From an uncultured Gammaproteobacteria bacterium (GTDB lineage: Bacteria; Patescibacteriota; Microgenomatia; Daviesbacterales; UBA10151): a stretch of 64,000 bases of DNA. Where the stretch lies: positions 66,177 to 130,176 of the forward strand of contig CAZFYQ010000002.1 of NCBI GenBank assembly GCA_964523905.1, in the 5' to 3' direction. This document shows, one piece after another, positions 13,113-64,000 of this stretch; the first letter of the stretch is position 1, and every line of letters starts with the position of its first letter. The position numbers and the translations under genes are program-made. The notes below the pieces were generated by a model. It worked only from the letters and a program-made list of their open reading frames with translations. It made no database searches and was not told the origin of the DNA.

Positions 13113-14297
13113 ATGAAAAAAGTCTCAGTAGTGCTTCCTACATATAATGAAAAAGCCAACCTAGAATCGACCATTAACAAGATTTTTGCCCAGGAAAAGA
13201 ATTTACCAGGTTGGGAAATGCATATTATCGTCGCTGATGATATCCGATCTTCTGATGGTACAGACCTGATTGCCAAAAAGTTAGCAGCAAAAAATCCCCG
13301 GATTCATTTAATCAAAGTTGAACCGGGTTTAGGAGTTGGTTTAATTAAAGGGCACCAATATGCTATCGAGCATATTCATCCGGATGTGCTAGCACAACTG
13401 GATGCTGACGGTCAGGTAGAGGCAGATGTAGTAGTGCGCTTGGTCAAAGGAGTAGATCAGGGCTATGATTTTGTAATTGGTTCCCGGCATGTAGAAGGTG
13501 GAAAGAATAATTTAAGCTTGTCTCGCAGAATTTTTACTTTGGGGTCTTCCTGGGTTTGCCGGATTTTAATGGGACCAATGAATGTTAAAGAATTTTCCAA
13601 CTCGGCCAGGGCTTTTACACCGGCAATTTTTAATAAACTTAATTTAGATCGGCTTCCTTGGAAAGAAACCACTTTTATTGTCCAGCCGGCTTTTTTACAT
13701 GAAATGATGCTGGCAGGTGCTAAATATAAAGAAGTGCCCTTAATCTTTAAAAATCGTTTGGAAGGATATTCTAAAAACAAAGTTTTAAATTACACGTATG
13801 ACACCATTACTTATTGTTTTGATGCTTTTTTACACAGACTAGGTATTAATTTTCCTTTTTATAAATTTACTCATCGGATCAAAACCTTTGTTAAGTTTGC
13901 TATGGTTGGACTAATGGGCACGATTATTGATTTTTTGTTCTATAAAATTTTTATTAGGGCATTTGGACTGCCTCCGGCTACTTCCAAGGGATTCTCGGCT
14001 GAAATTGCCATCCTTTGTAATTTTGTCTTAAATAATTCCTGGACTTTTAAACATCGCAAAACCAAAACTAACACTTGGCAGAAACTGGGTATTTATAATT
14101 TGGTTAGTTTAGGAGGGTTAATAATTGGAGTATTCGTAGTTAAATATCTGCATAATCTTTATGGGGACGGTTCAATTCCTTTATTTGGTCATCCAGTGGC
14201 TTACAATAACTTTTACTTTTTAGCCACCATTCCTCCGGTGATGGTTTGGAACTTTGTAGTTAACCACTTTGTTACCTGGCGCCATCACAAGGAATGA
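13113..14297 (+). CDS. Polyprenyl-phosphate sugar synthase (GT2, Dpm1/GtrB-like) fused to a C-terminal GtrA-like 4-TM domain.
   Basis: The N-terminal half reads VVLPTYNEKANL...DDIRSSDGTD...QLDADGQV. The C-terminal segment FAMVGLMGTIIDFLFYKIF...AEIAILCNFVLNNSWTFKHR matches the GtrA family pattern. Confidence 0.7.
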   Translation: MKKVSVVLPTYNEKANLESTINKIFAQEKNLPGWEMHIIVADDIRSSDGTDLIAKKLAAKNPRIHLIKVEPGLGVGLIKGHQYAIEHIHPDVLAQLDADGQVEADVVVRLVKGVDQGYDFVIGSRHVEGGKNNLSLSRRIFTLGSSWVCRILMGPMNVKEFSNSARAFTPAIFNKLNLDRLPWKETTFIVQPAFLHEMMLAGAKYKEVPLIFKNRLEGYSKNKVLNYTYDTITYCFDAFLHRLGINFPFYKFTHRIKTFVKFAMVGLMGTIIDFLFYKIFIRAFGLPPATSKGFSAEIAILCNFVLNNSWTFKHRKTKTNTWQKLGIYNLVSLGGLIIGVFVVKYLHNLYGDGSIPLFGHPVAYNNFYFLATIPPVMVWNFVVNHFVTWRHHKE

Positions 14298-15412
14298 AAC
14301 TGCTTTTGATTTCCATTCCGGGAATTTTACTAATTAGTTTACTGGTTAGTGCACTTTTTCCACTACAATATCAGCCCCAGCCACTTTTTTTATCCGAATT
14401 AATAAATCATTCTCTTGGTGTTCCTTGGCAAATAATGCCGCTGTTTTGGTTGGGTAATTTGATTGTGATTTTTCTAATTGGCAAGCAATTATTTAATCGA
14501 AAACTGGGGTTACTCAGCAGTTTGATTTATAGCATAACACCCTATTTTGCTTATCTAACAGTTGCCGGTTCTTTTTACCTATATTTAAGCTTTTGGTTTT
14601 TGTTGCTATATTACGCTTTGTTAAAATCTAAACAGGGAAATTTATTCAAAGCAGTAGTAGTGATTAGTGTGGCAATAATTTGTTTTAGCTCTTTGTTTGG
14701 AGTGGTTTTATTAACTGGAGTAGCTTTTCTTAATCAGTCACGAATTTTTCTTAAAAGCTTAGCAGTATCAATAATAATTTTAGCTGTCTTTTGTTCTTTA
14801 AATTTTGCCGCTTTTAAAAATATTGCCAGTAATCAGATTACTTTTTTAGCCGACCCGGCGGTTTATCACAATGTGGACATTTTTCAAGGTGAGTCAAAGG
14901 CAGCTGGATACAAAATTGTAAGTCGATTAGTGGAGAATAAATATTTATACATTAGTAAATATCTATTATTAAAATTTTTGACAAATATTAATCCTTTAAT
15001 CTTTTTTACTGCTCAGGAAAAAATGTTGGGATTTTCTTTTACACCGCCTTTTTATCTAGGTTTATTAATACCTTTTTTCTTTGGGCTTTATAAACTGTTA
15101 CAAACCAAACAGATCAAAAAGTTAATCCTACTTTCTGTTATTTTGACATTACCGTCATTTTTCGGACAGAGTTTAATTGATTTAAACCGGGTAGTAATTC
15201 TGGCTCCGGTAATATTATTTGTGATCATTTTTGGACTGTGGGAAATTTATCAAATTAAATCTTTTACCATAAAAAAAACTATCTTGGGGTTGATGATGCT
15301 AATGCTGATAGTGCAAGTCTTAAGCATGTGTTTCGATATTAGGATGAGGGAATATCCTCGTTTTTTAAGATATCAAAGTAACTTTTATAATTTTAGTTTA
15401 GGGAAACAATGA
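14294..15412 (+). CDS. Hypothetical polytopic membrane protein. It may be a divergent GT-C protein.
   Basis: It is 372 aa with many TM helices. Its start overlaps the upstream stop (ATGA). Confidence 0.4.
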   Translation: MKLLLISIPGILLISLLVSALFPLQYQPQPLFLSELINHSLGVPWQIMPLFWLGNLIVIFLIGKQLFNRKLGLLSSLIYSITPYFAYLTVAGSFYLYLSFWFLLLYYALLKSKQGNLFKAVVVISVAIICFSSLFGVVLLTGVAFLNQSRIFLKSLAVSIIILAVFCSLNFAAFKNIASNQITFLADPAVYHNVDIFQGESKAAGYKIVSRLVENKYLYISKYLLLKFLTNINPLIFFTAQEKMLGFSFTPPFYLGLLIPFFFGLYKLLQTKQIKKLILLSVILTLPSFFGQSLIDLNRVVILAPVILFVIIFGLWEIYQIKSFTIKKTILGLMMLMLIVQVLSMCFDIRMREYPRFLRYQSNFYNFSLGKQ

Positions 15413-17037
15413 GTAAGCAATTGACTGTTTTAATACTAATTCTACTAACTTTGTTTGGTGGGTTTTTACGATTTTATAAAAACACGGAGAATCCCCCCGC
15501 ACTAAATATTGATGAAGTTTCTTTTGGTTATAGCGCTTATTCTATTTTAAAAACCGGCCGCGATGAAAATAATGTTTTTATGCCGGTATTCTTCAAATCC
15601 ACAGGAGATTATAAAAGTCCTGTTTTAACCTATTCATTGGTACCGGCGATTGCGGTATTTGGTTTAAATGAGTTTAGTGTCAGATTTACCACGGCTTTAG
15701 CAGGTACATTATCCATACCGGTATTTTTCCTTTTACTAATTACCTTACTCAAAAACCAAAAAATAGCTTTATACGGGACTATATTACTTACAATTTCTCC
15801 TTGGCATATTTATTATTCCAGGTATGCATCTGAAAGTGTGATTGGTATTTTTTTACTACTACTGGGGTTATGGTGCTTTCTGAAGATGTTTGAGGGAGGT
15901 AAATTCTGGGCAGTAGCAGCATCATTTATGCTTGCTTTATCAATGTATAGCTATCTTTCACCAAGATTATTTATTCCCTTATTTTTGCTGACTATTTTTC
16001 TAAACAAGGCCCGGCAATTAAAAGCTAAATCAGCAAATGTCTGGATATTTATTTTCACTATCCTAATATTAATTTCACCAATGGTCTTTTTGCTGATTTG
16101 GGGTGGTGCTAATAAAAGAGCCGGAATGGTTTTTCTATCTCAGGATATCGACTATACCAGATACGTCATACTTGATCATTCGCATCGTTTAGGTGAGAAT
16201 TTTTTACTATTTTTCTTCTGGGCTAAAAGATATTTAAATTACTTCCAACCGGATTTTTTATTCTCAACAGGATTGAATATGACTATGGCAGGTTCAGGAG
16301 GTTTAGGGGTGCTTTATCTTTTTGAATTACCATGGCTTTGTTTGGGGTTTTTAAAACTAGCTAAAAACAAATTTCCGGGTAAGTCAATTATTATCTATTG
16401 GATTTTACTAGGAATTATACCGGCAACTTTAGCAAATAATGAGCTTAGTTCATCGAGAACTATGTTAGTAGCGCCCGCACTAATTACAATAGTAGCAATC
16501 GGATTAAATTATTTCACAGAATTAATTACTTCAGTAAAAAAAACTGCCCTTAAGATAAGTATCATGCTAATCTATTCAATTTTTATATTAATCATTTTAC
16601 TTCAAGCAATATTAGTATTTGTGGTTCATTTTCCGATACAACAAGGCGAGGCATTCATGGAAGGCACCAAAGAGAGCGTGTTATATGCAATTAATAACAA
16701 GGATCAATACAAAGAAATAGTTTACGATCCTTTTCGGGGGATAGAGGCGCCTAATATTGTAAATATTCCCTATATGTATATTTTGTTTTATTCAAAATAT
16801 GATCCGGCCAAATTTCAAACCGAGCCAAAAATATCAATTAATGATTCCTTTCATTTTGATAAATACACCATCAGAAGTATTAACTGGAGAGAACATGCGG
16901 ACCGGGAAAGGAAAGGTACTTTATTTATTGGTAGCCCTTGGAGTTTACCGGAAAAGGATTTAAAAGATGCTAGGATTTTAAAGAAAATTTACTTAAGTAA
17001 TGGTAGCTTGGCTTTAATAATTGTCACACCCAATTAG
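15409..17037 (+). CDS. PMT/ArnT-like GT-C glycosyltransferase (GT39/GT83-type).
   Basis: The loop-1 motif is NIDEVSFGYSAYSILKTGRDENNVFMPVFF. The protein is polytopic and 542 aa. The same motif recurs in 7 paralogs. Confidence 0.65.
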   Translation: MSKQLTVLILILLTLFGGFLRFYKNTENPPALNIDEVSFGYSAYSILKTGRDENNVFMPVFFKSTGDYKSPVLTYSLVPAIAVFGLNEFSVRFTTALAGTLSIPVFFLLLITLLKNQKIALYGTILLTISPWHIYYSRYASESVIGIFLLLLGLWCFLKMFEGGKFWAVAASFMLALSMYSYLSPRLFIPLFLLTIFLNKARQLKAKSANVWIFIFTILILISPMVFLLIWGGANKRAGMVFLSQDIDYTRYVILDHSHRLGENFLLFFFWAKRYLNYFQPDFLFSTGLNMTMAGSGGLGVLYLFELPWLCLGFLKLAKNKFPGKSIIIYWILLGIIPATLANNELSSSRTMLVAPALITIVAIGLNYFTELITSVKKTALKISIMLIYSIFILIILLQAILVFVVHFPIQQGEAFMEGTKESVLYAINNKDQYKEIVYDPFRGIEAPNIVNIPYMYILFYSKYDPAKFQTEPKISINDSFHFDKYTIRSINWREHADRERKGTLFIGSPWSLPEKDLKDARILKKIYLSNGSLALIIVTPN

Positions 17038-18200
17038 TTAAATAAACTGACGTTAGGGATTGGAGCACTGTTAGCTAGGATAAAGTTTTGGGCGTATAAA
17101 TAGATGGCTACGGCAATAATCGGCAGAATAATTTTAAATTCCCTACTCGTTAATACTTTTTCAAAAGCAATTAAAACAAATGGGGTAATTGGTAAAATGT
17201 AACGGGAGACGTCACGATGGGCCACAAAAGCGGCGGCGGTTAAATAGGTCAACACAAAAATTGCCATTGGATATAATTTTTTCTTCCATAAAGTCACTCC
17301 GCCTAAAAAGCCTAAAATAAAAATATAAACAATATCCTCCAGCCAAATATCTCCCACCCAGAACTGGTTTTTGTTAAACACCTGAAAAGGTGGAAAAGTT
17401 AAGTGAATATTGTCTCCACTATGAAAGTAGGCCCAAAAATCTCCGTAACTTTGACTGAATAAATAGAATACTGCAAATAATCCTAGAGGAATTAGAAGAA
17501 GGGGAGAGTATTTTATATGGGTTTTCCAGGCTTTGCTAATAGTAAATGGTTTGTTAAGGAGTAATTGCCAATGAAAGTAAATTGCTAGAGCGATGAAAAG
17601 TAAAATCCCCGGGGGCCTGGTAACCTGTGCCAGTAAACCTGCTAACGCGCTATAAATTAAATAAGGGTATTTATTGGAATACTCAAACTTCATGAAAAAA
17701 TATACTGCCAGAATGGTAAAGAAAATAAAAGTTGGCTCAGATGCGCCCACACTATGGACAATTAACCAGCGGGCGGGTAGTAGCAGGAAGATAGTAGCAA
17801 GTAGTAAGGGATGATCGGATAGTTTAAAATCTTTGATTAAAAAGTAAAAGGCCCACACTGCCAAAATAGTAGAACCTAAAGTGATAAATAGCATTGATTT
17901 TAGGAATCCTAAAAAAGGTGCAAAAAGGGCAATTAATAAAGAAAACCCGGGAAAATGCGAGGCAAAGTAACTTGCCGGCAAAGATTGGGGAAGCTGGGCT
18001 ATTAAAGCCGAATTGTAAAAAGTTTTGGCAATAATTACATATTCCAAACCGTCAAAATTGCGATATATTGTGGCAAAGCCATTAGAAAAATTTAACCCCC
18101 AGAAATTTGGTAAAGCAAGTAGATGTGGTAGCCAAACTAAAAAAGTTACTGCTAAAACTAGTCCTAGTAAAATCCCCAGGTCTTTCGTTGTTTTGTGCAT
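17034..18200 (-). CDS. Polytopic membrane protein, putative GT-C mannosyltransferase-like (PIG-V/GT76-like).
   Basis: It is 388 aa with about 10 TM helices. The motif LLAQVTRPPGILLFIAL resembles 52125..53282 (AATRIFGILLLPAIL). Confidence 0.35.
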   Translation of the reverse strand: MHKTTKDLGILLGLVLAVTFLVWLPHLLALPNFWGLNFSNGFATIYRNFDGLEYVIIAKTFYNSALIAQLPQSLPASYFASHFPGFSLLIALFAPFLGFLKSMLFITLGSTILAVWAFYFLIKDFKLSDHPLLLATIFLLLPARWLIVHSVGASEPTFIFFTILAVYFFMKFEYSNKYPYLIYSALAGLLAQVTRPPGILLFIALAIYFHWQLLLNKPFTISKAWKTHIKYSPLLLIPLGLFAVFYLFSQSYGDFWAYFHSGDNIHLTFPPFQVFNKNQFWVGDIWLEDIVYIFILGFLGGVTLWKKKLYPMAIFVLTYLTAAAFVAHRDVSRYILPITPFVLIAFEKVLTSREFKIILPIIAVAIYLYAQNFILANSAPIPNVSLFN

Positions 18201-18225: not shown

Positions 18226-20358
18226 ATGATTAAAAACCTCTCGGTGTTTTTCCCGGTGTTTAATGAGGAAGGAAATATTGCTACCACGGTTGGTAAAGCG
18301 CTGGCTGTTTTGGAAAAATTAAACCTGGAACAATGTGAAGTAATTATCGTAAATGACGGCTCTACTGATGGAACCCAAAAAGTAGCCGATGAGTTGGCCA
18401 AGAAAAATTCCAGGGTGAGGGTGATTCATCATCCCAAAAATTTAGGCTATGGCGAGGCTTTAAAATCCGGTTTTTATAATGCCAAATATGAGGTAATTGT
18501 CTATACTGACGGTGATGGGCAGTTTGACTTTGCCGAAGTTTCTAAATTCCTGGAAAAAATTGAAACTGCAGATCTGGTGATTGGTCATCGCATCAAAAGA
18601 CAGGATCCACTTTTTCGGCTGTTATTTAAAGAAGGTTGGAAATTATCTTTGTTTGTAATTTTTAGATTAACTTTAAAAGATGTGGACTGTGGTTTTAAGA
18701 TGGTAAGACGCCAGGCTTTAGAAAAAATTTCTCACTTAGAATCTAGCCGGGGAGCGATGATCAATGCTGAACTGGCTATTAAAATTAAAAAAGCTCATTT
18801 AAGAACCGCTCAAGTGGGAGTTAATCATTATCCCAGGCTGTCTGGTAAACCAACTGGGGCCAATATTAATGTGATTTTTAAATCTTACTTAGATTTAGTG
18901 AAGTTATGGTGGAAATTAAAAACCGACAAAATGATTTCTGCCCTTATTATTTTGGTACTGATGCTGGCAGCTTTCCTGCGGCTTTACCAGATAGATCATT
19001 ATATGATCTTTCTGGGAGATGAAGGACGGGATGCGGTGATTGTGAAAGCGCTGGTGACAGGAGAGCATTATCCCCTAATTGGTCCACCTACATCAGTAGG
19101 AAATATTTATTTAGGACCAATGTATTACTACATGATGGCCATTCCAATGACCATTTTTTATCTAAATCCAGTGGCGGCATCAAGTATGGATGGGTTAATT
19201 GGAGTTTTTACTGTGGCTTTAATTTATCTTTTGGGGAAAATGTGGTTTGATAAAAAATCCGCTTTAGTGGCAGCTTTTCTATATGCCATTTCCCCTGTGA
19301 CCATCAGTTACAGCAATTTTTCCTGGAATCCCAATCCCCTGCCGTTTTTTTCCTTGATTTCTATTTTTAGTTTATACAAAATTCATCAAACCAAAAACTT
19401 TAATTGGCTGATATTAACCGGGTTGTCTTTGGCAGCGGCAGTGCAAATGCATTATCTGGCTTTGATTTTAATTCCGATTGCCGGGATACTTTGGTTAATG
19501 GAAATTATCCGCTACAAAAATTTAAATCATCTGATTTCCGGAACTTTGTTAGGGCTGGTGGCGTTTTTGCTTTTAATGTCTCCCCTGTTTTTGTTTGATT
19601 TAAAACATGACTTTATGAATGCCCGGTCAGTAAATCAGCTGTTTACAGGAACAACTTTTAAAGGAAATCTGCTGGATAATTTTTTAAGAATTCCTGATAT
19701 TTTTAACAATAAATTAATTGGCAGGTACATGGCCGGAGGAAATTTTTATCTGGCAGTAGTGATGTCAATTTTAGTAATTGCCGGGTTAATAGTTAACAGT
19801 GGTTGGCCTCTGTTAGCCTTAGGGATTTGGCTGGGGGTAGGGATTTTTTTGCTGTCTTTTTATCAGCAAAGTATTTATGATCATTACCTGGGATTTTTAA
19901 ATCCGGCACCATATCTTTTATTTGGATCACTTTTCTACAAAAGGAAATGGATGATGGCTTTGCCTTTGGCTGGACTACTACTGATATTAACCATTGTTAA
20001 TTTTCAAAAAAATCCTTTAAATAACCCTCCGAATAATCAGTTGCAAAGAACCAAAAATGTGGCTGGTTTTATCATCAGCAGGTCTGGGGAGCAGCCGTTT
20101 AATTTTGCTTTAATTGCCAAAAGCAATTATGATCCGGCTTATCAGTATTATTTAGATCTCTACGGACATAAGCCTTTGGTTTTGCCCACTGCAAAAGCTC
20201 AGCAATTATTTGTAGTGTGTGAAGATGCCCTGTGTGATCCAACACATAGTCCCAAATATGAAATCGCGGCCTTTGGCTATACAAAAATAGACTGGGAGCA
20301 GGATTTTGCCGGAGTTAAAATATACCGGCTGATTGCAAATCCCGGAGGTAAGCCTTGA
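18226..20358 (+). CDS. Fusion protein. The N-terminal part is a Dpm1/GtrB-like GT2 polyprenyl-phosphate sugar synthase. The C-terminal part is a GT-C (ArnT-like) membrane glycosyltransferase domain.
   Basis: Residues 1-230 read FFPVFNEEGNI...VNDGSTDGT...YTDGDGQF. Residues 235-710 are polytopic and carry the LGDEGRD loop motif. Confidence 0.65.
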   Translation: MIKNLSVFFPVFNEEGNIATTVGKALAVLEKLNLEQCEVIIVNDGSTDGTQKVADELAKKNSRVRVIHHPKNLGYGEALKSGFYNAKYEVIVYTDGDGQFDFAEVSKFLEKIETADLVIGHRIKRQDPLFRLLFKEGWKLSLFVIFRLTLKDVDCGFKMVRRQALEKISHLESSRGAMINAELAIKIKKAHLRTAQVGVNHYPRLSGKPTGANINVIFKSYLDLVKLWWKLKTDKMISALIILVLMLAAFLRLYQIDHYMIFLGDEGRDAVIVKALVTGEHYPLIGPPTSVGNIYLGPMYYYMMAIPMTIFYLNPVAASSMDGLIGVFTVALIYLLGKMWFDKKSALVAAFLYAISPVTISYSNFSWNPNPLPFFSLISIFSLYKIHQTKNFNWLILTGLSLAAAVQMHYLALILIPIAGILWLMEIIRYKNLNHLISGTLLGLVAFLLLMSPLFLFDLKHDFMNARSVNQLFTGTTFKGNLLDNFLRIPDIFNNKLIGRYMAGGNFYLAVVMSILVIAGLIVNSGWPLLALGIWLGVGIFLLSFYQQSIYDHYLGFLNPAPYLLFGSLFYKRKWMMALPLAGLLLILTIVNFQKNPLNNPPNNQLQRTKNVAGFIISRSGEQPFNFALIAKSNYDPAYQYYLDLYGHKPLVLPTAKAQQLFVVCEDALCDPTHSPKYEIAAFGYTKIDWEQDFAGVKIYRLIANPGGKP

Positions 20359-56500: not shown

Positions 56501-57469
56501 ATGGAAAAAGTTGTTGTTACTGGAGCAGGGGGATTTATAGGTAGTCATTTAGTAACTTTCCTCAAGAAGAAAGGCTATTGGGTAAGAGGTGTTGACTTAA
56601 AATATCCGGAATATGGGAAATCCGATGCTGACGAATTTAAGCTTTTAGATTTAAGAGACAGAGCAAATGCATTAAAAGCCATGGCTGGAATGGATTACGT
56701 ATATTCTTTGGCGGCTGATATGGGAGGTATGGGATTTATTTCATTCAATAATGCCTTAATTTTATACAATAATGCCTCCATTGATTTAAATACCTTGGAC
56801 AGCGCTAAACAAAACAAAGTAAAGAAAGTCTTTTACTCCTCATCTGCCTGTGTATATCCGGAGTACAAACAAAGTAAAGCCAAATTAGTTCCCTTAAAAG
56901 AAGAAGACGTTTATCCGGCCCAGCCTCAGGATGCATATGGGTGGGAAAAACTTTTTACTGAACTGCTGGCTAAATACTACACAGAAGATTATGGTATGCA
57001 AACTAGAGTTGCCAGGTTTCATAATATTTTTGGACCATTAGGTACCTGGGATGGTGGTAGGGAAAAAGCCCCGGCTGCCATTTGTAGAAAAGTAGCAATT
57101 GCTAAATTATCAGGAAAGCATGAAATTGAAATTTGGGGAGATGGAGAGCAGACCAGGTCCTTTTGTTACATTGATGATTGCGTTAAGGGAATATATAAAT
57201 TAATGATGTCTAATTATAAAGAGCCATTAAACATTGGACAAGACCGCATGGTTACCATCAATCAATTAGTTGATATGGTATCTTCTATAGCCGGAATTAA
57301 AGTAACAAAAAAATATATCAAGGGCCCGCAAGGAGTAAGAGGAAGAAATTCAGATAATACAAAACTTAAGGAGGTTCTTAAATGGGAACCGGATATTACA
57401 TTAGAAAAAGGTCTGGAACAAACTTATCAATGGATTGAAGCCCAGGTAGGAAAAAAGTATGGCAAGTAA
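56501..57469 (+). CDS. GDP-mannose 3,5-epimerase-like SDR.
   Basis: [15 protein letters not shown]...[26 protein letters not shown]...[20 protein letters not shown]...[12 protein letters not shown] closely tracks the characteristic GME blocks known from plants ([42 protein letters not shown]). Confidence 0.65.
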
Positions 57470-58520
57470 GACGGTACTAGTGACTGGATCAGCTGGCTTA
57501 ATCGGTTCTGAGGCAGTTAGGTTTTTTGCAGATAAGGGTTTTAAAATAATTGGTATTGATAATAATTCCAGAAGATACTTCTTTGGTCCCGCTGCGTCTA
57601 CTCTTTGGAATAAAAACAAATTAAAAAGAGAAATTAAAGATTACACACATGTAAATGTTGATATCAGGAATCAAAAAAAAATTGAACAAGTTTTTAAAGA
57701 TAATAAAATTGATTTAGTAATTCATGCAGCAGCACAACCATCTCATGATTGGGCAGCCAAAGAGCCTCTAACTGATTTCACTATTAATGCCTTAGGTACC
57801 TTGATTATGCTGGAAGCCTACCGAAAATTTGCACCGGAGGCAGTGTTTATTTTTACTTCAACAAATAAGGTTTATGGGGATAATCCCAATAAATTGCCAC
57901 TAAAGGAGTTATCTACTCGCTGGGAATTACCGAAGACTCACAAATATTATAATGGTATCGATGAAAGTATGAGTCTGGATGATACCACTCATTCGATCTT
58001 TGGAGTTTCTAAAACCTCTGCTGATTTAATGGTACAAGAGTACGGTCGTTATTTTGGGTTAAAAACAGGTGTATTTAGAGGCGGTTGTTTAACTGGTCCT
58101 GCTCATTCTTCTGCTCAGTTACATGGCTTTTTAGCATATCTAGTGGCCTCTATTGCCAGAAAACAGCCGTATACGATTTTTGGGTATAAAGGAAAACAAG
58201 TAAGGGATAATATTCATGCTTATGATGTGGTTAATGCTTTTTATCAATACTTTCAAAATCCACGTCAAGGAGAGGTATATAATTTAGGCGGATCAAGACA
58301 TTCCAATATTTCAGTAATGGAAGCAGTGGAAAAGATCCAAAAGATAACTGGAAATAAAGCAAAAATAGAATATAACAAAACAAATAGGATAGGGGATCAT
58401 ATCTGGTATATTTCTGATGTATCCAAATTTCAAAAACACTATCCAAAATGGGAATATACATATGACTCAGATAAAATTTTAGAAGAACTTTGTGATTTTG
58501 CCATGCATCAGAAGAAATAA
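57459..58520 (+). CDS. NAD-dependent sugar epimerase (CDP-paratose 2-epimerase-like SDR).
   Basis: It has [29 protein letters not shown] and GKQVRD. Confidence 0.55.
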
Positions 58521-58521
58521 T

Positions 58522-59649
58522 TTACTGTGCTTTTAATAGCCCCTTGGCTTTTAATTGTTCAGATGCTTTTTCAAATAGATCTTCAGCTTTTTCTTTCTCG
58601 CTCCAGGTAATTAAATCTTTCATTCCTTCTGTAAAACTCCATTTAGGAGACCAGCCCAAGGTTCTCTTAATTAAAGATATATCAGAGCTGCAGTGTCTGA
58701 CATCACCGGACCTGAATTTTCCGGTAATTTCTGGGCTAATATTTTTCTTGAGTAACTTTGCCAAGATTTCTGCAATTTCCTTGATGGTAATTGCTTTGCC
58801 CGCTCCTAAATTAAAGATTTGCCCAAAAGCTTTTTCATTTTCCAAAGCTGCAATATTAGCATCTGCAATGTCATAGACTGAAACAAAATCACGAGTTTGT
58901 AATCCATCTTCATAAACCACTGGTTGGTGATCATTTTTCAATCTACTTAAGAAAATAGCAGCGACCCCGGTGTATGGATTAGAAAGAGATTGACGCGGCC
59001 CATAAACATTAAAATATCGAAAAGCTGTGGCAGCAGTTCCATAGGCTTTTCCAAAAATCATTACCATATCTTCCTGAGATTGTTTTGTAACAGCATATAT
59101 AGAATTGGATCTAAATGGTTGATCCTCGGAAATTCCTACAGGTGTAAGTAAGCGATGACAATTAGGACAAAATAGTTCCCACTTTTTTCCAGACATTTGC
59201 TGATCATCTCGAAGATTTGGTCTGACTAAACCGCATTTTGGACAATTATATAGTCCTTCACCATAGGCACTCATGGAAGAGGCGACAATAATTCGTTTTA
59301 CAGAAGTTTTATTATTTGCTAGGTAATCTAGCAGCTTAGCTGTTCCTAAAGTATTGTTATATACATATTTTTCTATCTCATACATGCTTTGACCGACTCC
59401 TACCACTGCTGCCTCATGATAAATAGCATCCATACCAACGATTGCTTTTTTCAAATCACTAAAATTAGTGACGTCTCCTTTAATAAACTCAGCTTTTTTG
59501 TTTAGATATACTGGTTTTCCATTTTGATGAACTTGATCTGTTAAATTATCTAAAATTCTGACTTGGTATTTTTTTGTAATTAACCTATCTACTAAATGAG
59601 AACCAATAAATCCGGCCCCGCCTGTAACTAAAACCTTTTTAATCTTCAT
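58522..59649 (-). CDS. NAD-dependent epimerase/dehydratase family protein with an inserted CxxC-X17-CxxC zinc-ribbon-like segment.
   Basis: It has [12 protein letters not shown] and YAVTK. An insertion reads YNCPKCGLVRPNLRDDQQMSGKKWELFCPNCH. Confidence 0.55.
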   Translation of the reverse strand: MKIKKVLVTGGAGFIGSHLVDRLITKKYQVRILDNLTDQVHQNGKPVYLNKKAEFIKGDVTNFSDLKKAIVGMDAIYHEAAVVGVGQSMYEIEKYVYNNTLGTAKLLDYLANNKTSVKRIIVASSMSAYGEGLYNCPKCGLVRPNLRDDQQMSGKKWELFCPNCHRLLTPVGISEDQPFRSNSIYAVTKQSQEDMVMIFGKAYGTAATAFRYFNVYGPRQSLSNPYTGVAAIFLSRLKNDHQPVVYEDGLQTRDFVSVYDIADANIAALENEKAFGQIFNLGAGKAITIKEIAEILAKLLKKNISPEITGKFRSGDVRHCSSDISLIKRTLGWSPKWSFTEGMKDLITWSEKEKAEDLFEKASEQLKAKGLLKAQ

Positions 59650-59672: not shown

Positions 59673-60458
59673 TTAACTTGGATTATAATAGCCAGCGGCG
59701 GCTTTTATTTGTGCTGATAAGAAGCCTAGATTACCCTTGAAAAAACTAATTTTAGTGTGAACTTTGCCTGGAGCGTATCTTCTTTCAACTGGGATTTCCT
59801 TTGTTTTTAATCCCAATTGGTTAGCCCTAACTGTTAGGTACATGTTTAATTCATAACTGGTAAAGATATTACGAAAAGGTTTTACTTTAGGGTGAGTTAA
59901 ATATTTGACACTATATCCTCTAAAACCATTGGTTACATCTGTATACCAATACATTGCTCCGATAGATAAAATTGGTGCAGCAAGTAACCTAACAGCGAAG
60001 AATCTCATCGGAGGAGTATTAATGGCCCTGCCGCCTTTTACAAACCGTGATCCTTGTACATAATCATAACTTTCGTCTAATGCCTTAATGAAATCAGGAA
60101 TAGCTTCAACACCATCTTTGTTATTACCATCAATTTGGATGATTCCTTTATAACCTTGGGATAAAGCATAAGAAAAAGCCATTCTAAGTTGGGTGCCCTG
60201 TTTACCTTTAGTGACCAGTGTCAAAAGAGTTCTGACATTCATCTGTTTAAGAAACTTGGGATTGGTTGATTCATCAGTTGATCCCCAATCAGCAATAATG
60301 ATGTCTGCCAATTTAGAAAAGGGAAGCATTCTTTTTAATTGGGTTTTAATTTTTTCACCTTCATTTAATACCGGAATACAAATACAGTATTTAGCTGTTT
60401 TTTTTCTAAATTCTTGTTTTTTATAATCAGGAATTTGCCAACCGCTTTTTTTAGTCAT
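59673..60458 (-). CDS. GT2 family glycosyltransferase.
   Basis: CICIPVLNEGEKI...IIIADWGSTDEST. Confidence 0.55.
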   Translation of the reverse strand: MTKKSGWQIPDYKKQEFRKKTAKYCICIPVLNEGEKIKTQLKRMLPFSKLADIIIADWGSTDESTNPKFLKQMNVRTLLTLVTKGKQGTQLRMAFSYALSQGYKGIIQIDGNNKDGVEAIPDFIKALDESYDYVQGSRFVKGGRAINTPPMRFFAVRLLAAPILSIGAMYWYTDVTNGFRGYSVKYLTHPKVKPFRNIFTSYELNMYLTVRANQLGLKTKEIPVERRYAPGKVHTKISFFKGNLGFLSAQIKAAAGYYNPS

Positions 60459-60485: not shown

Positions 60486-61316
60486 ATGAAAAAGAAAGGT
60501 TTGGTTTCAGTAATTATCACTACCAAAAATGAAGCCACAGTTATCGGAACTCTTTTGCAAAGTATTCATCAGCAAACCTACCCTAAAATAGAAACTATTT
60601 TAGTTGATAATAATTCAACAGATAACACAAAAAAAATTGCTGAGCAAAATAAAACAGTGAAGATTTACTCTGTTGGTCCAGAAAGATCAGCTCAAAGAAA
60701 TTTTGGAGCCAAAAATTCTTCTGGAGATTTTCTATTTTTTCTTGATGCTGATATGGAATTAACATCAAAAGTAATAGCAGTTTGTGTTCAAAAGATAGCC
60801 AAGGAAAATATTGCTGGAGTGGTGGTGCCTGAGGAATCTAAATGGACTAACTTTTGGGGACAGGTAAAAGCATTTGAACGATCATTTTATAGTGAGAAAG
60901 GAGATCCAATTACTGATGCCGCTAGGTTTTTTTCTAAAAAAGTATTTAATAAGGTAGGTGGATACGATGAATCCATTACCGGACCGGAGGATTGGGACTT
61001 ACCAGATAGAATTAGAGAACAGGGTTATAAAATAGATAGAATTACAGAAAAAATTTATCATCATGAACAAGAATTATCTCTTGGAAGATTGTTTAAGAAA
61101 AAATTTTATTATGGCCTTAATGCGCATAGATATTTATCAAAGCACAAAATTGGAGTCCTTAGCCCAAAAACAATTTATTTTTTAAGACCCCTTTTTTACA
61201 AAAACTGGACTAAGCTAATTATTCATCCACTGCTTTCTTTGGCGATGATCTATATGCTTTCAGTAGAATTAATTGGTGGCGGATTAGGATACATTATCGG
61301 AAGGTTTAATAAGTGA
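60486..61316 (+). CDS. GT2 family glycosyltransferase.
   Basis: VSVIITTKNEATVI...VDNNSTDNT...FLDADMEL. Confidence 0.65.
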   Translation: MKKKGLVSVIITTKNEATVIGTLLQSIHQQTYPKIETILVDNNSTDNTKKIAEQNKTVKIYSVGPERSAQRNFGAKNSSGDFLFFLDADMELTSKVIAVCVQKIAKENIAGVVVPEESKWTNFWGQVKAFERSFYSEKGDPITDAARFFSKKVFNKVGGYDESITGPEDWDLPDRIREQGYKIDRITEKIYHHEQELSLGRLFKKKFYYGLNAHRYLSKHKIGVLSPKTIYFLRPLFYKNWTKLIIHPLLSLAMIYMLSVELIGGGLGYIIGRFNK

Positions 61317-62422
61317 AAGTTTTACAACTAACTGTACATTTTTCACCCAACGTAGGCGGAGTGGAGACTCACTTATCAGATTTAGTAAAGTTTTTAGTGA
61401 AACAAAATATACAGGTATTTGTACTTTGTTACCAGCCTCTTTCCGTAAAGGTTGGATGGAAGATGTATGAAAAAGAAACAGCACTGGAAATTTTCCGTAT
61501 TCCCTGGATTGCCGGTTTATTTTACAAGTTAATCAAAAGTCCGATACTGGAATTTATTTACTTAGTCCCGGGTTTGTTCATAATTACTCCTTTGATACTG
61601 GTTATTAAAAATCCTAAGATTATACATGCCCACGGAATAGTAGCAGGCTTTGTAGCTGTATTTTGGGGAAAATTATTTAACAAAAGGATAATTATTTCTA
61701 CACACAGCATTTATTCATTCCCAAAAAGCGGTTTGTATCATGACTTTGCCAGATTTATTTTTGTCGGAGCAGATCAAGTACTTTGTTTATCTAATCAGTC
61801 TAAAAATGAATTAATTAAGCTCATTAGTGTAAGTAAGCTTAAAACATTTACATACTGGATTGATTTGAATAAATTCACCAGACAAAAAGAAAGCAGTTTT
61901 AAATTTAAGGAAAAGTTTGTGGTCTTATTTGTAGGAAGACTTATTTTAGAAAAAGGATTGGATGTATTACTGGATTCGGTAAAATCCTGGAATAAAAATA
62001 TCGGATTGGTGATAGCAGGAACAGGACCATTGGAAAATTTGGTAAAAAAACAATCCAGTGAAAATTTCCAAATTCATTTTCAAGGAAAAGTAGATCAAAG
62101 CAATTTGCCGGATTTATATAATAGCGTCAATCTTTTAATTGTTCCATCTACTACAGAAGAAGGTTTTGGTAGGGTGATAATTGAGTCACTTGCATGCGGA
62201 ACCCCGGTAGTAGCTGCTAATAGGGGAGCTATTACGGAAGCGATGGATAGTAGTGTAGGTAGATTAATAGACATCTCTCCCCAAAGCATCAAAAATGCAG
62301 TTGAGGATTTATATAATCATCCGGCAAAACTGAATTTAATGGCAAAAAATGCCAGAAGCTTTGCGGAGAGGAGGTATTCGGAGAAAAATGGACAAACAAT
62401 TATCAACTCCTACAAGGATTAA
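61313..62422 (+). CDS. GT4 family glycosyltransferase with a GTG start.
   Basis: EGFGRVIIESLACGTPVVAANRGAITEAM. The GTG overlaps the upstream TGA (GTGA). Confidence 0.6.
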   Translation: MKVLQLTVHFSPNVGGVETHLSDLVKFLVKQNIQVFVLCYQPLSVKVGWKMYEKETALEIFRIPWIAGLFYKLIKSPILEFIYLVPGLFIITPLILVIKNPKIIHAHGIVAGFVAVFWGKLFNKRIIISTHSIYSFPKSGLYHDFARFIFVGADQVLCLSNQSKNELIKLISVSKLKTFTYWIDLNKFTRQKESSFKFKEKFVVLFVGRLILEKGLDVLLDSVKSWNKNIGLVIAGTGPLENLVKKQSSENFQIHFQGKVDQSNLPDLYNSVNLLIVPSTTEEGFGRVIIESLACGTPVVAANRGAITEAMDSSVGRLIDISPQSIKNAVEDLYNHPAKLNLMAKNARSFAERRYSEKNGQTIINSYKD

Positions 62423-63227
62423 ACTAGATCGATTACTTGATAATGCAGGCGATATGGCTTTAAAAAGAAGAGCAAGACGAATTATTGAGGCTATTAATCC
62501 CCAAACTAATGAACAGATTATGGATTTGGGTTGTGGCACTGGGTATTATCTTTTTCTATTATCCAGTTTACCAGTTAAACTTCAGTTAACAGGTTTGGAT
62601 AATGATAAGAAAGCTTTAGTTGAAGGAAAAGAGTCTCTTAAAGGACGGGGTATAAAATTTGTCTTGAATGATTCACGTAAATTACCCTTCCCTAAAAGCA
62701 GTTTCGATAAAATTGTAGCCTCTGAAGTATTAGAGCATGTTGAAAATGATGAACAAGTCCTAAAAGAAATTTATCGAGTATTAAAACCAGGTGGTAGATT
62801 GGTGATCTCTGTTCCGTCAATCAATTATCCATTTTTCTGGGATCCCATTAATTGGACTTTGCAACATTTATTTAATACACATATTAAAACCGGTTTTTTT
62901 TCCGGGTTATGGTATGGACATTTAAGATTATATCAAAAAGAAAACCTCAGAAAAAAATTTATCAAAGCCGGGTTTAAAGTAGCAAATTGTGAGGAATTAA
63001 CTTTCTGGTGTTTACCATTTAATCACTATCTAATTAATTTAGTAGCAAGGCTTTTATATGATGTTAAAATCTCTCCTAAAATTGCTGATAGTCTATCAAA
63101 ATTTAAAGAAACTAAGAAGCCCCTTTTTATAAGGTTAGCTTTTGGTTTAATTAATACAGTTGATAGTCTAAACGAACTATTTCCTCAAGGTAGTGGAGTA
63201 AATGTATTTGTTGTAGGGGATAAATAG
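62388..63227 (+). CDS. Class I SAM-dependent methyltransferase.
   Basis: Motif I is DLGCGTGYY. The motif VLEHVENDEQVLKEIYRVLKPGGRLVIS is also present. The start is ambiguous (62349, 62388 or 62454). Confidence 0.6.
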   Translation: MDKQLSTPTRIKLDRLLDNAGDMALKRRARRIIEAINPQTNEQIMDLGCGTGYYLFLLSSLPVKLQLTGLDNDKKALVEGKESLKGRGIKFVLNDSRKLPFPKSSFDKIVASEVLEHVENDEQVLKEIYRVLKPGGRLVISVPSINYPFFWDPINWTLQHLFNTHIKTGFFSGLWYGHLRLYQKENLRKKFIKAGFKVANCEELTFWCLPFNHYLINLVARLLYDVKISPKIADSLSKFKETKKPLFIRLAFGLINTVDSLNELFPQGSGVNVFVVGDK

Positions 63228-63229: not shown

Positions 63230-63955
63230 TTATTTATATAAGCCTTTGATCTCATTTAACTTTATTTTCACTAGTTCTGTAAGTGAATAAATAATCGCAT
63301 CCGGAAATTTTACTTTTGTTCCCAGATCATTCCTCCATTCTACAGGAATTTCCTTAATGGAATGTTTTTTTATCTTACCAATATATAAGATTTCAGAATC
63401 AAATCCCCATCTGCCAATTTGTTGCCTGCTAAAGATTTCTTCCGCGGCTTTATCGGAAAAACATTTAAAGCCACAGGTAAAATCAGAAATGTCCATTTGT
63501 AATATTGTCTGAGACATTTTAGTAAACATTTTTCCAAGAGCCTCACGAACTATTGGTTGCCTAATGATTATTTTAGAATTTTTCATCTTGCGGGACCCAA
63601 TAATAATTGGATATTTTTTAAAGTGGGGTAGTAATTTATTAAACTCAGTTATTGGGGTAGATAGATCAACATCCAGAAAAAAACGATACTTACCTTTAGC
63701 ACTGAGCATTCCTTGTTTTATTGCCGCCCCTTTACCGCGATTAGGAGCATAGGAAACTAGTTTAAATTTTAATTTCTTTTGTAAACTATTAAGAAGTTTT
63801 AAAGTCTTATCAGTTGAACCATCGTTAATGATAATTACTTCCCAGCTAAATTTTTGCTTCTTAAAGAAATCGATTATTGAATTAATATTACCTAATCTTT
63901 TCTGCTCATTAAAAACTGGAATAATTACTGATAAATACGGATTTTGTTTTTTCAT
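63230..63955 (-). CDS. GT2 polyprenyl-phosphate sugar synthase (Dpm1/GtrB-like).
   Basis: LSVIIPVFNEQKRL...IIINDGSTDKT...FLDVDLSTP. It is 241 aa. Confidence 0.7.
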   Translation of the reverse strand: MKKQNPYLSVIIPVFNEQKRLGNINSIIDFFKKQKFSWEVIIINDGSTDKTLKLLNSLQKKLKFKLVSYAPNRGKGAAIKQGMLSAKGKYRFFLDVDLSTPITEFNKLLPHFKKYPIIIGSRKMKNSKIIIRQPIVREALGKMFTKMSQTILQMDISDFTCGFKCFSDKAAEEIFSRQQIGRWGFDSEILYIGKIKKHSIKEIPVEWRNDLGTKVKFPDAIIYSLTELVKIKLNEIKGLYK

Positions 63956-64000
63956 TGCTTTATCTTTTTTGCAATTGTTACCAAAGATGTTCCTATAGGA

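Follow-up and report, generated by a model that had tools for sequence, protein, structure and literature searches.

The lipid-linked-oligosaccharide pathway of the ER comprises ALG transferases of family GT4, RFT1, DPM1/ALG5, the GT-C enzymes ALG3/9/12/6/8/10 and STT3; the Haloferax pathway has AglJ/AglD, AglR, AglS and AglB. Mycobacterial LM/LAM and arabinogalactan depend on Ppm1, PimE (GT87), MptA–C, Emb and AftA–D, and the ArnC/ArnD/ArnT system acts on lipid A. Three-component GtrA/GtrB/Gtr* systems, among them CsbB/GtcA/YfhO and the GT136 pentofuranose systems, have three or four genes and decorate a polymer from another pathway with one side-chain sugar (PMC11127046, PMC8035078, PMC5836110). 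The GT-C enzymes of streptococcal Pgf (four genes, two of them GT-C) and actinobacterial Pmt (GT39) act on extracytoplasmic Ser/Thr-rich proteins (PMC12041528; bioRxiv 10.1101/2022.10.10.511621).

We analysed a window of DNA, that is, the whole stretch of 64 kb, from a host that the names of its relatives confirm as a Microgenomates (Daviesbacteria-like) CPR bacterium, as the original prediction of a CPR-like organism had suggested. On one conserved, operon-like sugar-adding block of ~55 kb, this tiny-genome bacterium spends roughly 5% of its 1-Mb genome, whereas the mycobacterial genes are scattered over 4 Mb. The block starts at 9354 and reaches at least 63955 (Table 1). Its start had been placed at 13113, and we moved it because RmlA/B/C (9354–11918) and Gmd (11922) sit upstream; the SDRs predicted downstream of 13113 are indeed there (three), but Gmd is not. 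Coding density in the block is 99%, and stop and start codons overlap, so no small GtrA gene is concealed in it.

Between 13113 and 63955, 37 of 40 ORFs encode glycosyltransferases, flippases or sugar-nucleotide enzymes, bearing out the prediction that nearly every gene is glycosylation-related. Pfam scans of all 55 window ORFs, together with a hydropathy count, returned almost exactly the numbers first proposed: ten GT2 domains, four GT4 enzymes, two MOP/Wzx flippases and 19 polytopic non-Wzx proteins of GT-C type. The last form at least six paralogue families by sequence comparison within the window (at least five had been proposed). Thirteen of the 19 clear the gathering threshold of a Pfam GT-C family (PMT_2/PMT for 11, GT87 for one and PIG-V for one); the others were assigned by paralogy, a weak match, matches in relatives or predicted structure, the last giving GT-C folds for 34397- and the C-terminal half of 27473. 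Six GT2 domains match models of polyprenyl-phosphate sugar synthases near full length (ArnC, PgfS, PpgS, AglJ and Dol-P-hexose transferase), against a single GtrA-type domain in the block, which is fused to the GT2 at 13113. The four GT4, the four GT2 that are not Dpm1-like and the two Wzx would be the parts for building and flipping a lipid-linked oligosaccharide. The expected SAM methyltransferase and cyclase are also encoded, and the searchable literature is consistent with the system being uncharacterised.

Table 1 Features of the glycosylation block, named in the text by first coordinate (a minus sign marks the reverse strand)
Feature	Coordinates	Strand	Evidence
RmlA (long form), glucose-1-phosphate thymidylyltransferase	9354..10385	+	TIGR01208 322 bits (cut-off 320); PF00483
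RmlB, dTDP-glucose 4,6-dehydratase	10382..11386	+	TIGR01181 448 bits (cut-off 365)
RmlC-like dTDP-4-dehydrorhamnose 3,5-epimerase	11355..11918	+	PF00908 1e-45; TIGR01221 136 bits, below 156-bit cut-off
Gmd-like GDP-mannose 4,6-dehydratase	11922..12938	+	PF16363 1e-95; TIGR01472 8e-92, under cut-off
Dpm1/ArnC-like GT2 fused to GtrA-type TM domain	13113..14297	+	PF00535, PF04138; ArnC/AglJ/PgfS/PpgS-like
Short GT-C-like protein, 7 TM, no DE motif	14294..15412	+	PMT_2 E 0.007 (weak); BLASTP 2e-9 to 41832
PMT_2/GT39-like GT-C, family A	15409..17037	+	PF13231 and PF02366 over cut-off; loop-1 DE invariant
Short GT-C, 9 TM, PIG-V-like NFDGxxY motif	17034..18200	-	BLASTP 2e-5 to 52125
Dpm1-like GT2 (N terminus) fused to PMT_2 GT-C (C terminus)	18226..20358	+	PF00535 3.5e-31; PF13231 2e-12
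Soluble Dpm1/GtrB/ArnC-like GT2	20431..21153	+	Top PDB matches DPMS 5mlz 5e-17, GtrB 5ekp, ArnC
PMT_2 GT-C, distant family A member	21208..22719	+	PF13231 3.6e-11
PTPS_related/PMT_2 GT-C, family B	22676..24346	+	PF10131 5e-16
Family B GT-C paralogue	24343..26051	+	32% identity to 22676
MOP/Wzx flippase	26023..27480	+	PF13440 6e-51; WzxC/O-glycosylation Wzx/TuaB-like
Family C, 1140 aa	27473..30895	+	C-terminal half GT-C by predicted structure
PMT_2 GT-C, family A	30882..32504	+	PF13231 8e-10
GT87/PIG-U-like GT-C, family D	32504..33766	+	PF09594 30 bits (cut-off 25)
Bitopic protein, TM at both ends, extracytoplasmic middle	33763..34440	+	No Pfam or NCBIfam match
Family C, STT3/AglB/PglB-fold GT-C, unannotated family	34397..36382	-	True product 659 aa; predicted structure
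GT2, not Dpm1-like	36465..37349	+	PF00535; paralogue group with 37346 and 50304
GT2, not Dpm1-like	37346..38149	+	PF00535; N-terminal half SunS-like
GT4	38162..39235	+	PF00534 4e-23
GT87-like GT-C paralogue, family D	39232..40371	+	BLASTP 9e-31 to 32504
PMT_2 GT-C, family A	40340..41845	+	PF13231 2e-9
PMT_2 GT-C, family A	41832..43394	+	PF13231 2e-7
PMT_2 GT-C, family A	43391..44998	+	PF13231 3e-11
PMT_2 GT-C, family A	44999..46654	+	PF13231, PF02366
'Cyclase'/arylformamidase-like metal hydrolase	46656..47282	+	PF04199 1e-24; TIGR03035 1e-36, under cut-off
PMT_2 GT-C, family A	47309..48709	+	PF02366, PF13231
PMT_2 GT-C, family A	48655..50301	+	PF13231 3e-16
GT2, not Dpm1-like	50304..51074	+	PF00535; top solved relatives (PDB) GmaR 4.7e-19, SunS 9e-13
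GT4	51058..52128	+	PF00534 1e-30
PIG-V-like GT-C, family E	52125..53282	+	PF04188 39 bits (cut-off 22)
Second MOP/Wzx flippase	53279..54523	+	PF01943 3e-14, PF13440 5e-13
Dpm1/PpgS-like GT2	54524..55330	+	PF00535; PpgS and PgfS matches near full length
GT4	55341..56462	+	PF00534 2.5e-42
SDR, GDP-L-fucose-synthase-like	56459..57469	+	PF01370; NF047922 5e-37, under cut-off
SDR sugar-nucleotide epimerase/dehydratase	57459..58520	+	PF01370 1e-43
SDR sugar-nucleotide epimerase/dehydratase, GalE-like with insertion	58522..59649	-	PF01370 1.6e-52, two stretches
Divergent Dpm1/AglJ-like GT2	59673..60458	-	PF00535 22 bits, slightly under cut-off; AglJ/Dol-P-hexose transferase/PpgS-like
GT2, not Dpm1-like	60486..61316	+	PF00535 8e-25; TIGR04283-like 5e-28
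GT4	61313..62422	+	PF00534 3e-31
SAM-dependent methyltransferase	62349..63227	+	PF08241 9e-25
Soluble Dpm1/GtrB-like GT2, paralogue of 20431	63230..63955	-	PF00535 4e-24; 35% identity to 20431; PgfS-like

The related loci recovered by comparative analysis, 64 in all, belong to Daviesbacteria, Woesebacteria and further Microgenomates and show conserved gene order. Orthologues are 40–65% identical, against 24–36% for paralogues within the window, and every paralogue is represented by a conserved orthologue of its own across Daviesbacteria and Woesebacteria. 30882 has an orthologue in 50 of the 64 loci, orthologues of 44999 are ~60% identical in 39, and 14294 is a conserved partner of 15409, adjoining its orthologue in 11–13 loci. 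17034- is highly conserved among Microgenomates: its relatives are 67–78% identical, many of them match PF13231, and NCBI names one GT39. The loop-1 DE motif is invariant across ten family A sequences. The GT2–PMT_2 fusion of 18226, whose N-terminal domain resembles PgfS, AglJ, ArnC and PpgS, is kept in the related loci L005 and L001; L005 also keeps, as a 68% orthologue, the GT2–GtrA fusion of 13113, a polyprenyl-P-sugar synthase joined to a candidate flippase. These conserved fusions directly tie synthase, flippase and GT-C to one another. Synteny and one-to-one orthology point to one conserved production line of many steps, not to decoration modules that could be exchanged for one another. 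They do not fit the island of parallel combinatorial modules originally envisaged, and the locus is not a variable island.

The block contains two members of an unannotated, oligosaccharyltransferase-shaped family (family C; 27473 and 34397-). When predicted structures were compared, oligosaccharyltransferases (OSTs) came closest, the top matches being the protein-directed STT3, DPY19, AglB and PglB, not Emb/Aft. No sequence homology of family C to STT3/AglB/PglB (GT66) or DPY19 (GT98) was detectable; the WWDYG motif is absent from the family, and one would therefore not expect it to use a classical N-X-S/T sequon. By our own count, family C differs from GT66 and GT98 in having three extra N-terminal helices on an 11-TM core. 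Model-derived topology places the conserved residues D137, H141, Y167, H168 and K305 on the outer face. 27473 is laid out as a signal anchor, an extracytoplasmic glycoside-hydrolase/deacetylase-fold domain (~24–450, DUF3863-like) and an STT3-fold GT-C (~489–1140). None of the matched OST chains has the deacetylase-fold domain. The Arn system, whose lipid A is missing from monoderms, has its deformylase as a separate protein that works on the lipid-linked donor, in contrast to the fused domain of 27473 with its predicted extracytoplasmic position. The Wzx gene 26023 overlaps 27473 by 8 nt, the two are neighbours in 23–31 related loci, and in one relative (P0384) they form a single 1639-aa protein, although this one predicted fusion may stem from an error in gene calling or from a frameshift. 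The OST-like structure and the Wzx overlap and fusion suggest en-bloc transfer besides single-sugar decoration. The other family C gene, 34397-, has a conserved neighbour in 33763, with an orthologue in 42 of the 64 loci.

Our leading interpretation, which we hold tentatively and with somewhat less than even confidence, is that the block is a conserved surface-glycan factory organised like the lipid-linked-oligosaccharide pathway of the ER and archaea, not an O-antigen cluster. Each enzyme class of that pathway (GT4/GT2, MOP-type flippase, Dpm1-like synthases, GT-C and STT3 fold; PDB entries 6s7t, 9s6t, 9s6u, 9s6r and 3waj) is matched here, and partial NCBIfam matches include AglJ and Dol-P-hexose transferase. 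The locus differs in lacking an ALG7/WecA-type initiator, in the missing WWDYG and GT66 sequence signatures of family C and, relative to archaeal agl clusters, in its far larger number of GT-C genes and its bacterial host.

Building on the observed genes, their folds and fusions, and their synteny and conservation, we infer the following order of steps, donors and acceptor. RmlA/B/C, Gmd, the Fcl-like SDR and two more SDRs, identified as genes, would supply nucleotide sugars, of which the exact kinds are presumed. An initiating enzyme with its gene outside the block would begin a glycan on a polyprenyl carrier; the four GT4 and four conventional GT2, judged by their families, would lengthen it in the cytoplasm, and a Wzx-type flippase would move it outwards. 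In parallel, the six Dpm1/GtrB/ArnC-like GT2 would load single sugars onto polyprenyl phosphate. On the outer face, ~17 GT-C of five families, among them PMT_2 (with the invariant loop-1 DE), PTPS_related, GT87 and PIG-V-like types, would each add a defined sugar from lipid-P-sugar donors, analogous to ALG3/9/12/6/8/10, AglS, PimE and the Mpt enzymes. Finally, the STT3-fold paralogues 34397- and 27473, the latter translationally coupled to Wzx and bearing its hydrolase-fold domain, may hand over the completed glycan, whole or in large pieces, from its carrier to the acceptor, for which surface proteins (S-layer proteins or pilins) and the cell wall are the likeliest candidates. Since no PGT (PF00953, PF02397) was matched among the window ORFs or recognised near related loci, the lipid-PP-oligosaccharide intermediate is assumed.

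Alternatively, many parallel Gtr-type modules, family C included, could each add single sugars to protein or wall with no en-bloc step, which we regard as somewhat unlikely. As in three-component systems, the locus has GT2 synthases, a flippase and outer-face GT-C, and the Gtr-type logic of the original prediction survives in so far as lipid-P-monosaccharide synthases feeding extracytoplasmic GT-C make up a large share of it and two fusions exist, one of them a direct GT2–GT-C fusion. The family A DE motif is PMT-type, typical of protein O-mannosyltransferases, and streptococcal GtrB/PgfS with PgfM-type GT-C glycosylate Ser/Thr-rich proteins (PMC12041528); Pgf and Pmt share with the block a PgfS/GtrB-like GT2, PMT_2-type GT-C, the loop-1 DE and a locus epimerase, against which stand the 11 PMT_2-type paralogues here, with no MIR domains. 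MOP-family flippases can also serve polyprenyl-P-monosaccharides (PMC11127046), so Wzx is no proof of an oligosaccharide intermediate. However, six synthases and 19 GT-C in one conserved block with one GtrA, a direct synthase–GT-C fusion and no identified primary pathway set the locus apart from three-component systems. Parallel modules also ignore the Wzx and leave four GT4 and four non-Dpm1 GT2 unexplained; the conserved order and one-to-one orthology favour sequential steps towards one product, and family C is structurally nearest to en-bloc OSTs and coupled to Wzx.

Unlikely, in our view, is a pathway resembling that of mycobacterial LM/LAM or arabinogalactan, in which a heteropolysaccharide receives its primer in the cytoplasm before processive GT-C polymerise and branch it on the outside with polyprenyl-P-sugars. 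The product, anchored to a lipid or to the wall, would be a lipoglycan or a secondary cell-wall polymer, perhaps with much rhamnose or fucose; family C would be the polymerase or wall ligase, and the fused deacetylase-like domain would edit the polymer or peptidoglycan. Many outside GT-C, polyprenyl-P-sugars and GT87 are common to both, and family C is structurally similar to AftA, AftB and AftD. Against this, the window contains no Emb/Aft Pfam matches, decaprenyl-P-arabinose (DPA) pathway, LCP ligase, ABC exporter or RmlD, and the nearest structures to family C are protein-directed.

Very improbable is a conventional Wzx/Wzy-type cluster for O-antigen, capsule or EPS with its PGT, Wzy and ligase beyond the window. 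Such clusters typically have two Wzx, GT2, GT4 and sugar-nucleotide genes, but 19 GT-C genes and six Dpm1-like synthases lie far beyond their range, and CPR bacteria are monoderms without LPS. Profile searches of the 64 kb found neither PGT, Wzy nor WaaL, as predicted, and neither Wzz nor LCP (the sole Wzy_C match scores 17 bits, short of the 31.7-bit cut-off, and is in the PTPS_related paralogue 24615). None of the five was recognised in the related loci among the unmatched genes that recur up to 10 kb from family C.

That paralogue, 24343..26051, is broken by a 1-nt frameshift near 24576, so that its listed ORF begins at 24615; tblastn located its N-terminal 78 aa in another frame. The arylformamidase-like protein 46656 is possibly a sugar de-N-acylase, and YfhO is present in relatives.

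Pfam scans of 55 substantial open reading frames (ORFs), a hydropathy count and all-against-all BLASTP on the ORF listing reproduced the gene inventory of the original prediction, which had described a glycosylation island of more than 50 kb starting at 13113. The ORF listing places 40 densely packed genes, predominantly on the plus strand, between 13113 and 63955. The real start of the block, however, lies at 9354, where RmlA (long form) and RmlB pass NCBIfam cut-offs and RmlC-like and Gmd-like genes complete the beginning; RmlD is absent from the window. From 9354 to 63955 the DNA is 99% coding, stop/start codon overlaps are common, and scanning the window for Rfam families and tRNAs gave no match. 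GC content is 0.32–0.37 in the block (14000–64000) compared with 0.38–0.41 upstream (1–12000). Because the locus is syntenic in relatives, this reduction likely reflects a codon effect of membrane proteins and not foreign DNA. AT skew on the plus strand is persistently negative across the block.

Features of the glycosylation block and of related loci. Genes are named by their start coordinate; a minus suffix denotes the minus strand.
Feature	Position or genes	Detail
Upstream housekeeping genes	1–9.2 kb	FtsE, FtsX, two PcsB-like hydrolases, RF2, short TsaD-like ORF, CAP-domain protein
GT2		9 free-standing genes and 1 domain fused to a GT-C
GT2, near-full-length to synthase models	13113, 18226 (N terminus), 20431, 54524, 59673-, 63230-	six domains
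GT2, conventional GT-A type	36465, 37346, 50304, 60486	
GT4		4 genes
MOP/Wzx flippases	26023, 53279	PF13440, PF01943 matches
Polytopic non-Wzx membrane proteins		19
GT-C family A (PMT_2/PMT)	15409, 30882, 40340, 41832, 43391, 44999, 47309, 48655	more distant: 21208, 18226 (C terminus)
GT-C family B (PTPS_related)	22676, 24615	
GT-C family C (unannotated)	34397-, 27473	27473: residues about 489–1140
GT-C family D (GT87-like)	32504, 39232	32504: PF09594, 30 bits against a cut-off of 25; 39232: its paralogue
PIG-V-like GT-C	52125	
SDR sugar-nucleotide enzymes		3
SAM methyltransferase		1
'Cyclase'/arylformamidase-like hydrolase	46656–47282	
Bitopic conserved protein	33763	no assigned function
Daviesbacteria-type order, part 1		TsaD-like, CAP, RmlA-D, Gmd, GT2/GtrA, PMT, [17034], GT2-PMT fusion, GT2, PMT_2
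Daviesbacteria-type order, part 2		PTPS_related x2–4, Wzx, 27473, (further family C copy), 30882, 36465, 37346, 38162, 39232, 40340, 41832
Woesebacteria-type order		50304, 48655, 47309, 44999, 30882, [34397], 33763, 32504, minimal 27473, 39232, PTPS_related x3

The two family C proteins share 32% identity and had no match in Pfam (including PF02516, STT3), in NCBIfam, or in phmmer and profile hmmsearch comparisons with the PDB; 42 diverse members of the family likewise had no Pfam match. Structure was more informative. For the AlphaFold model of 34397-, built with 30 homologues (pLDDT 89.8, pTM 0.91), AglB (17.5) and PglB (17.2) rank ahead of ALG12 (17.1), Pmt2 (16.1), AftA (15.5) and ArnT (14.8) in structural comparison. 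An independent Foldseek search agreed: the top 22 chains were STT3A/B, yeast Stt3, DPY19, AglB and PglB (E values between 1e-10 and 2.5e-7, TM-scores ~0.45–0.5). The model predicts a GT-C membrane core followed by a C-terminal extracytoplasmic alpha/beta domain of the AglB/STT3 type, the fold expected of an oligosaccharyltransferase (OST). Judged from its helices and the charge distribution, the protein would carry three additional N-terminal helices, a Lys/Arg-rich cytoplasmic loop and an 11-TM core, whose first outer loop would bear the invariant HDGxWH and NYH motifs.

Eight residues (D137, H141, Y167, H168, K305, G411, Q455 and Q464) are invariant in the diverse family C alignment. Two acidic residues might correspond to the catalytic ones in EL1 and EL2 of OSTs: D137, in the HDGxWH motif of the first outer loop, is among the eight, and E248 is kept in close relatives. 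No TIXE/SVSE motif, as in EL5 of OSTs, was recognised, and WWDYG, the hallmark of GT66, was not found in the family. A candidate equivalent, IWDWxDT, is present in close relatives, but 27473 has PWPLFAYDST at this place and the motif is not kept in the diverse alignment (A4). Family C thus matches the GT66 OSTs in fold, without sequence membership and without WWDYG, and for want of this motif we call it 'STT3-fold' and do not file it in GT66. A full HMMER search retrieved 2,017 clusters (50% identity level) at E ≤ 1e-3 from 1.84 billion representative proteins. Members are ~550–680 aa long, or ~1,015–1,170 aa with a fused N-terminal domain.

The longer form is exemplified by 27473 (1140 aa), whose model (pLDDT 72 overall, 80–95 in the N-terminal domain) predicts a signal anchor, an outer-face beta/alpha domain, a beta-sandwich and the family C core, in this order. 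GH57 enzymes are listed in its structural comparison, and STT3B and AglB lead the GT-C matches of its C-terminal half. The ArnD-like fold of the N-terminal domain, taken with the arylformamidase-like hydrolase, is a hint that an amino sugar may be de-N-acylated; the hydrolase gene itself lies between two PMT_2 genes. In Woesebacteria the orthologue of 27473 is reduced to a minimal form of 548 aa, matching residues 587–1140 alone. Across six Woesebacteria-type loci (L011, L012, L014, L017, L018 and L041) these minimal forms measure 546–553 aa; they lack the deacetylase-like domain and the three additional N-terminal helices, and define the family C core. The start of 27473 overlaps the Wzx gene 26023 by 8 nt. 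One metagenomic representative protein (P0384, 1639 aa) joins a 26023-like Wzx part (residues 19–484) to a full 27473-like part (494–1634), and could be either a true fusion or a gene-model artefact.

Thirteen proteins reach Pfam gathering scores for GT-C families, 11 of them for PF13231/PF02366, and six more were assigned through paralogy, relatives or structure. In family A, D35-E36 in the first outer loop is invariant in all ten aligned paralogues. The PF13231/PF02366 proteins resemble the bacterial PMT_2/ArnT-like group. Their Pfam families, and the loop-1 DE of family A, are shared with PMT/GT39, whereas the MIR domains found in loop 5 of eukaryotic PMTs were absent from Pfam scans of the GT-C proteins. 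A short family A relative, 14294, has SE in place of DE and always stands beside a 15409 orthologue, as seen in 11–13 related loci; by analogy with Pmt1–Pmt2, the two might, speculatively, pair up as a heterodimer in which 14294 is inactive. The minus-strand gene 17034- has no Pfam match of its own, but PF13231 is frequent among its relatives (67–78% identical), one of which NCBI names GT39. An NFDGxxY motif is common to 17034- and 52125 (BLASTP, E = 2e-5).

In family B, the listed ORF 24615–26051 is part of a gene of ~567 aa (24343–26051) with a 1-nt frameshift near 24576. The N-terminal 78 aa, with the THHDDVQ loop-1 motif, lie in another frame inside an apparent 268-nt 'gap', and relatives measure 565–577 aa. 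Either the gene is a pseudogene or the assembly is wrong at this point.

Six GT2 domains align nearly full-length to synthase models (ArnC, PgfS, PpgS, AglJ and the haloarchaeal Dol-P-hexose transferase), every match being under the equivalog cut-off, and the best PDB relatives of 20431 are the Pyrococcus Dol-P-Man synthase (DPMS), GtrB and ArnC. Two of the six are fused to other domains. In 13113 the GT2 is joined to a GtrA/DPMS transmembrane domain, a fusion also present in the related locus L005; in 18226–20358 a Dpm1-like GT2 and a PMT_2 GT-C form one 710-aa polypeptide, kept in relatives at 726–785 aa (including L005 7789–9969). The latter fusion, of the Rosetta-stone kind, ties a lipid-P-sugar synthase to the GT-C that uses its product. 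Among the conventional GT2 genes, the best solved relatives of 50304 are GmaR and SunS, matching the N-terminal half only, and the same holds for the whole paralogous trio (36465–38149 and 50304–51074). Both are cytoplasmic enzymes, GmaR transferring O-GlcNAc to flagellin and SunS S-glycosylating a peptide.

Synthases and outer-face GT-Cs are two of the three components of a Gtr system, and the original prediction had read the locus as many parallel modules of this type. The third component, GtrA, is represented by a single PF04138 domain in the window, the one fused at 13113, and at 99% coding density there is no space for further small flippase ORFs. The two MOP flippases might stand in for GtrA-type partners (PMC11127046). 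Good descriptions exist of three-component systems, of protein glycosylation by Pgf/GtrB, of teichoic acid glycosylation by YfhO/CsbB and of the decoration of Rha-CWPS, each of which uses one to few GT-C genes (PMC11127046, PMC8035078, PMC5836110, PMC12041528, PMC10821137, PMC9574508). We consider it rather unlikely that a pure multi-Gtr arrangement accounts for the locus.

A pathway for a wall polymer or lipoglycan of the LM/LAM kind would account for the GT87 (PimE-type) member, 32504, and for the likeness of family C to AftA, AftB and AftD, which is one of fold only. Against this, Pfam scans of the window gave no match to the Emb/Aft arabinosyltransferase families or the decaprenyl-P-arabinose pathway of the mycobacterial LM/LAM/AG machinery, and we judge this reading unlikely. 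That the block is an ordinary Wzx/Wzy cluster with its absent parts elsewhere is highly improbable: Wzx is present, but phosphoglycosyltransferase (PF00953, PF02397) was found in none of the 55 window ORFs and no ORF in the window reached threshold for Wzy/WaaL, LCP or the chain-length regulator Wzz, upholding the prediction that the locus has no phosphoglycosyltransferase, Wzy or WaaL. The single Wzy_C match (17 bits against a cut-off of 31.7) and a weak STT3 match are sub-threshold and fall inside 24615, a PTPS_related paralogue. Two other candidates for a Wzy-like polymerase were ruled out, 39232 as a GT87 paralogue and 17034- as PIG-V/PMT_2-like.

The gene content originally described stands, and its interpretation holds in part. 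We read the organisation of the enzymes as resembling the dolichol pathway of the endoplasmic reticulum (ER) and archaea. The analysis establishes which enzyme families and folds are present, which genes are fused or coupled and how far the locus is conserved; the lipid-PP intermediate, the order of steps, the sugars and the acceptor are inferred. Sugar nucleotides would be made first, the sugars likely including 6-deoxyhexoses. GT4 and GT2 enzymes would then assemble a lipid-linked glycan in the cytoplasm, which Wzx would move to the outer face. There, GT-C enzymes would lengthen and branch it with lipid-P-sugars from the six Dpm1-like synthases. The last transfer would fall to the two STT3-fold enzymes, one of them coupled to a deacetylase-like editing domain. 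Surface proteins are the acceptor that we favour, with modest confidence, because the nearest family C structures (STT3, DPY19, AglB and PglB) all act on polypeptides. En-bloc transfer from a lipid-linked oligosaccharide to Asn is hinted at indirectly, by the position next to Wzx, by the overlap of the two genes and by a single fusion.

In its full form, our dolichol-like reading is that Daviesbacteria and Woesebacteria possess a bacterial equivalent of the ER/archaeal pathway. A lipid-linked oligosaccharide would be made inside the cell, flipped by Wzx and extended on the outside by a dozen or more GT-Cs drawing on lipid-P-sugars. Family C, acting as a hitherto unrecognised, sequon-independent OST with one paralogue coupled to deacetylase-like editing, would transfer it en bloc onto proteins of the surface, for instance those of the S-layer or pilins. 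Taken as a whole, we regard this proposal as tentative and distinctly unlikely to hold in every part.

A search with the family C profile through the species representatives of GTDB recovered 64 related loci, almost all from Daviesbacteria, Woesebacteria or other Microgenomates/Patescibacteria; the best match was 58–60% identical. Homologues of 34397-, 17034- and 27473 are 50–78% identical, their named sources being Candidatus Daviesbacteria, Woesebacteria, Microgenomates and 'Patescibacteria group'. Orthologues are typically 40–65% identical, compared with 24–36% between window paralogues, indicating that the duplications are old and that every copy has been retained. The locus is thus lineage-wide and not a strain-specific island. 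Class-wide synteny, which in L005 extends to the flanking TsaD-like and CAP genes, also argues against recent horizontal acquisition. With chromosomes of ~0.75–1.15 Mb in relatives, the block amounts to ~5% of the genome.

Patescibacteria (CPR) account for much of the diversity of bacteria. Their genomes are ~1 Mb in size and their presumed way of life is attachment to other cells, which makes the surface central to their biology. One major CPR lineage keeps a conserved ~55-kb, 44-gene block predicted to serve outer-face glycan assembly and, to our knowledge, most bacteria have fewer GT-C genes than this block even when their genomes are several times larger. Family C offers a testable target, with a predicted fold nearest to OSTs, coupling to Wzx and one paralogue with a deacetylase-like domain. 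Were it a new en-bloc transferase, it would broaden what is known of OST-like enzymes, shed light on how the N-glycosylation machinery evolved and provide tools for glycoengineering. Under the dolichol-like reading it would be an OST family of its own, deeply related to GT66 and GT98, and the glycan coat would belong to the core traits of these ultrasmall episymbionts. If family C proves to act otherwise, the locus would still be the best genomic entry to Microgenomates envelope chemistry.

Searching the literature for CPR together with GT-C, OST, PglB, AglB, GT39 or mannosyltransferase yielded no analysis of such a system. A Microgenomates genome paper mentions only "29 genes of glycosyl transferases" (PMC7143001), a freshwater CPR survey gives GT2/GT4 counts (PMC9166423) and a study of Saccharibacteria pili terms glycosylation in the group unexplored (PMC11623550). 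The component enzyme classes are known; the arrangement, scale and lineage, and the STT3-fold GT-C family, are not described in the literature searched.

Upstream of the block, the genes at 1123–5170 form a cell-division hydrolase module of FtsE, FtsX and two tandem PcsB-like paralogues, which are 52% identical over their coiled-coil part; one carries an M23 domain and the other a C39_2-like domain. The TsaD-family ORF (7971–8318) encodes 115 aa and its counterpart in L005 (19442–19762) 106 aa, too small for full TsaD or TsaB, and adjoins the CAP-domain gene in both. About two dozen of the metagenome-assembled contigs among L006–L067 are labelled 'uncultured Gammaproteobacteria bacterium' and one 'Clostridia', yet their gene content is of the Microgenomates type; these labels are probably placeholders or mislabels. 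The related loci also hold GT-C types beyond the set in the window, namely an 800-aa YfhO protein (L057 13560–15965) and a further PMT_2 subfamily in 20 loci (for example, L032 4330–5808).
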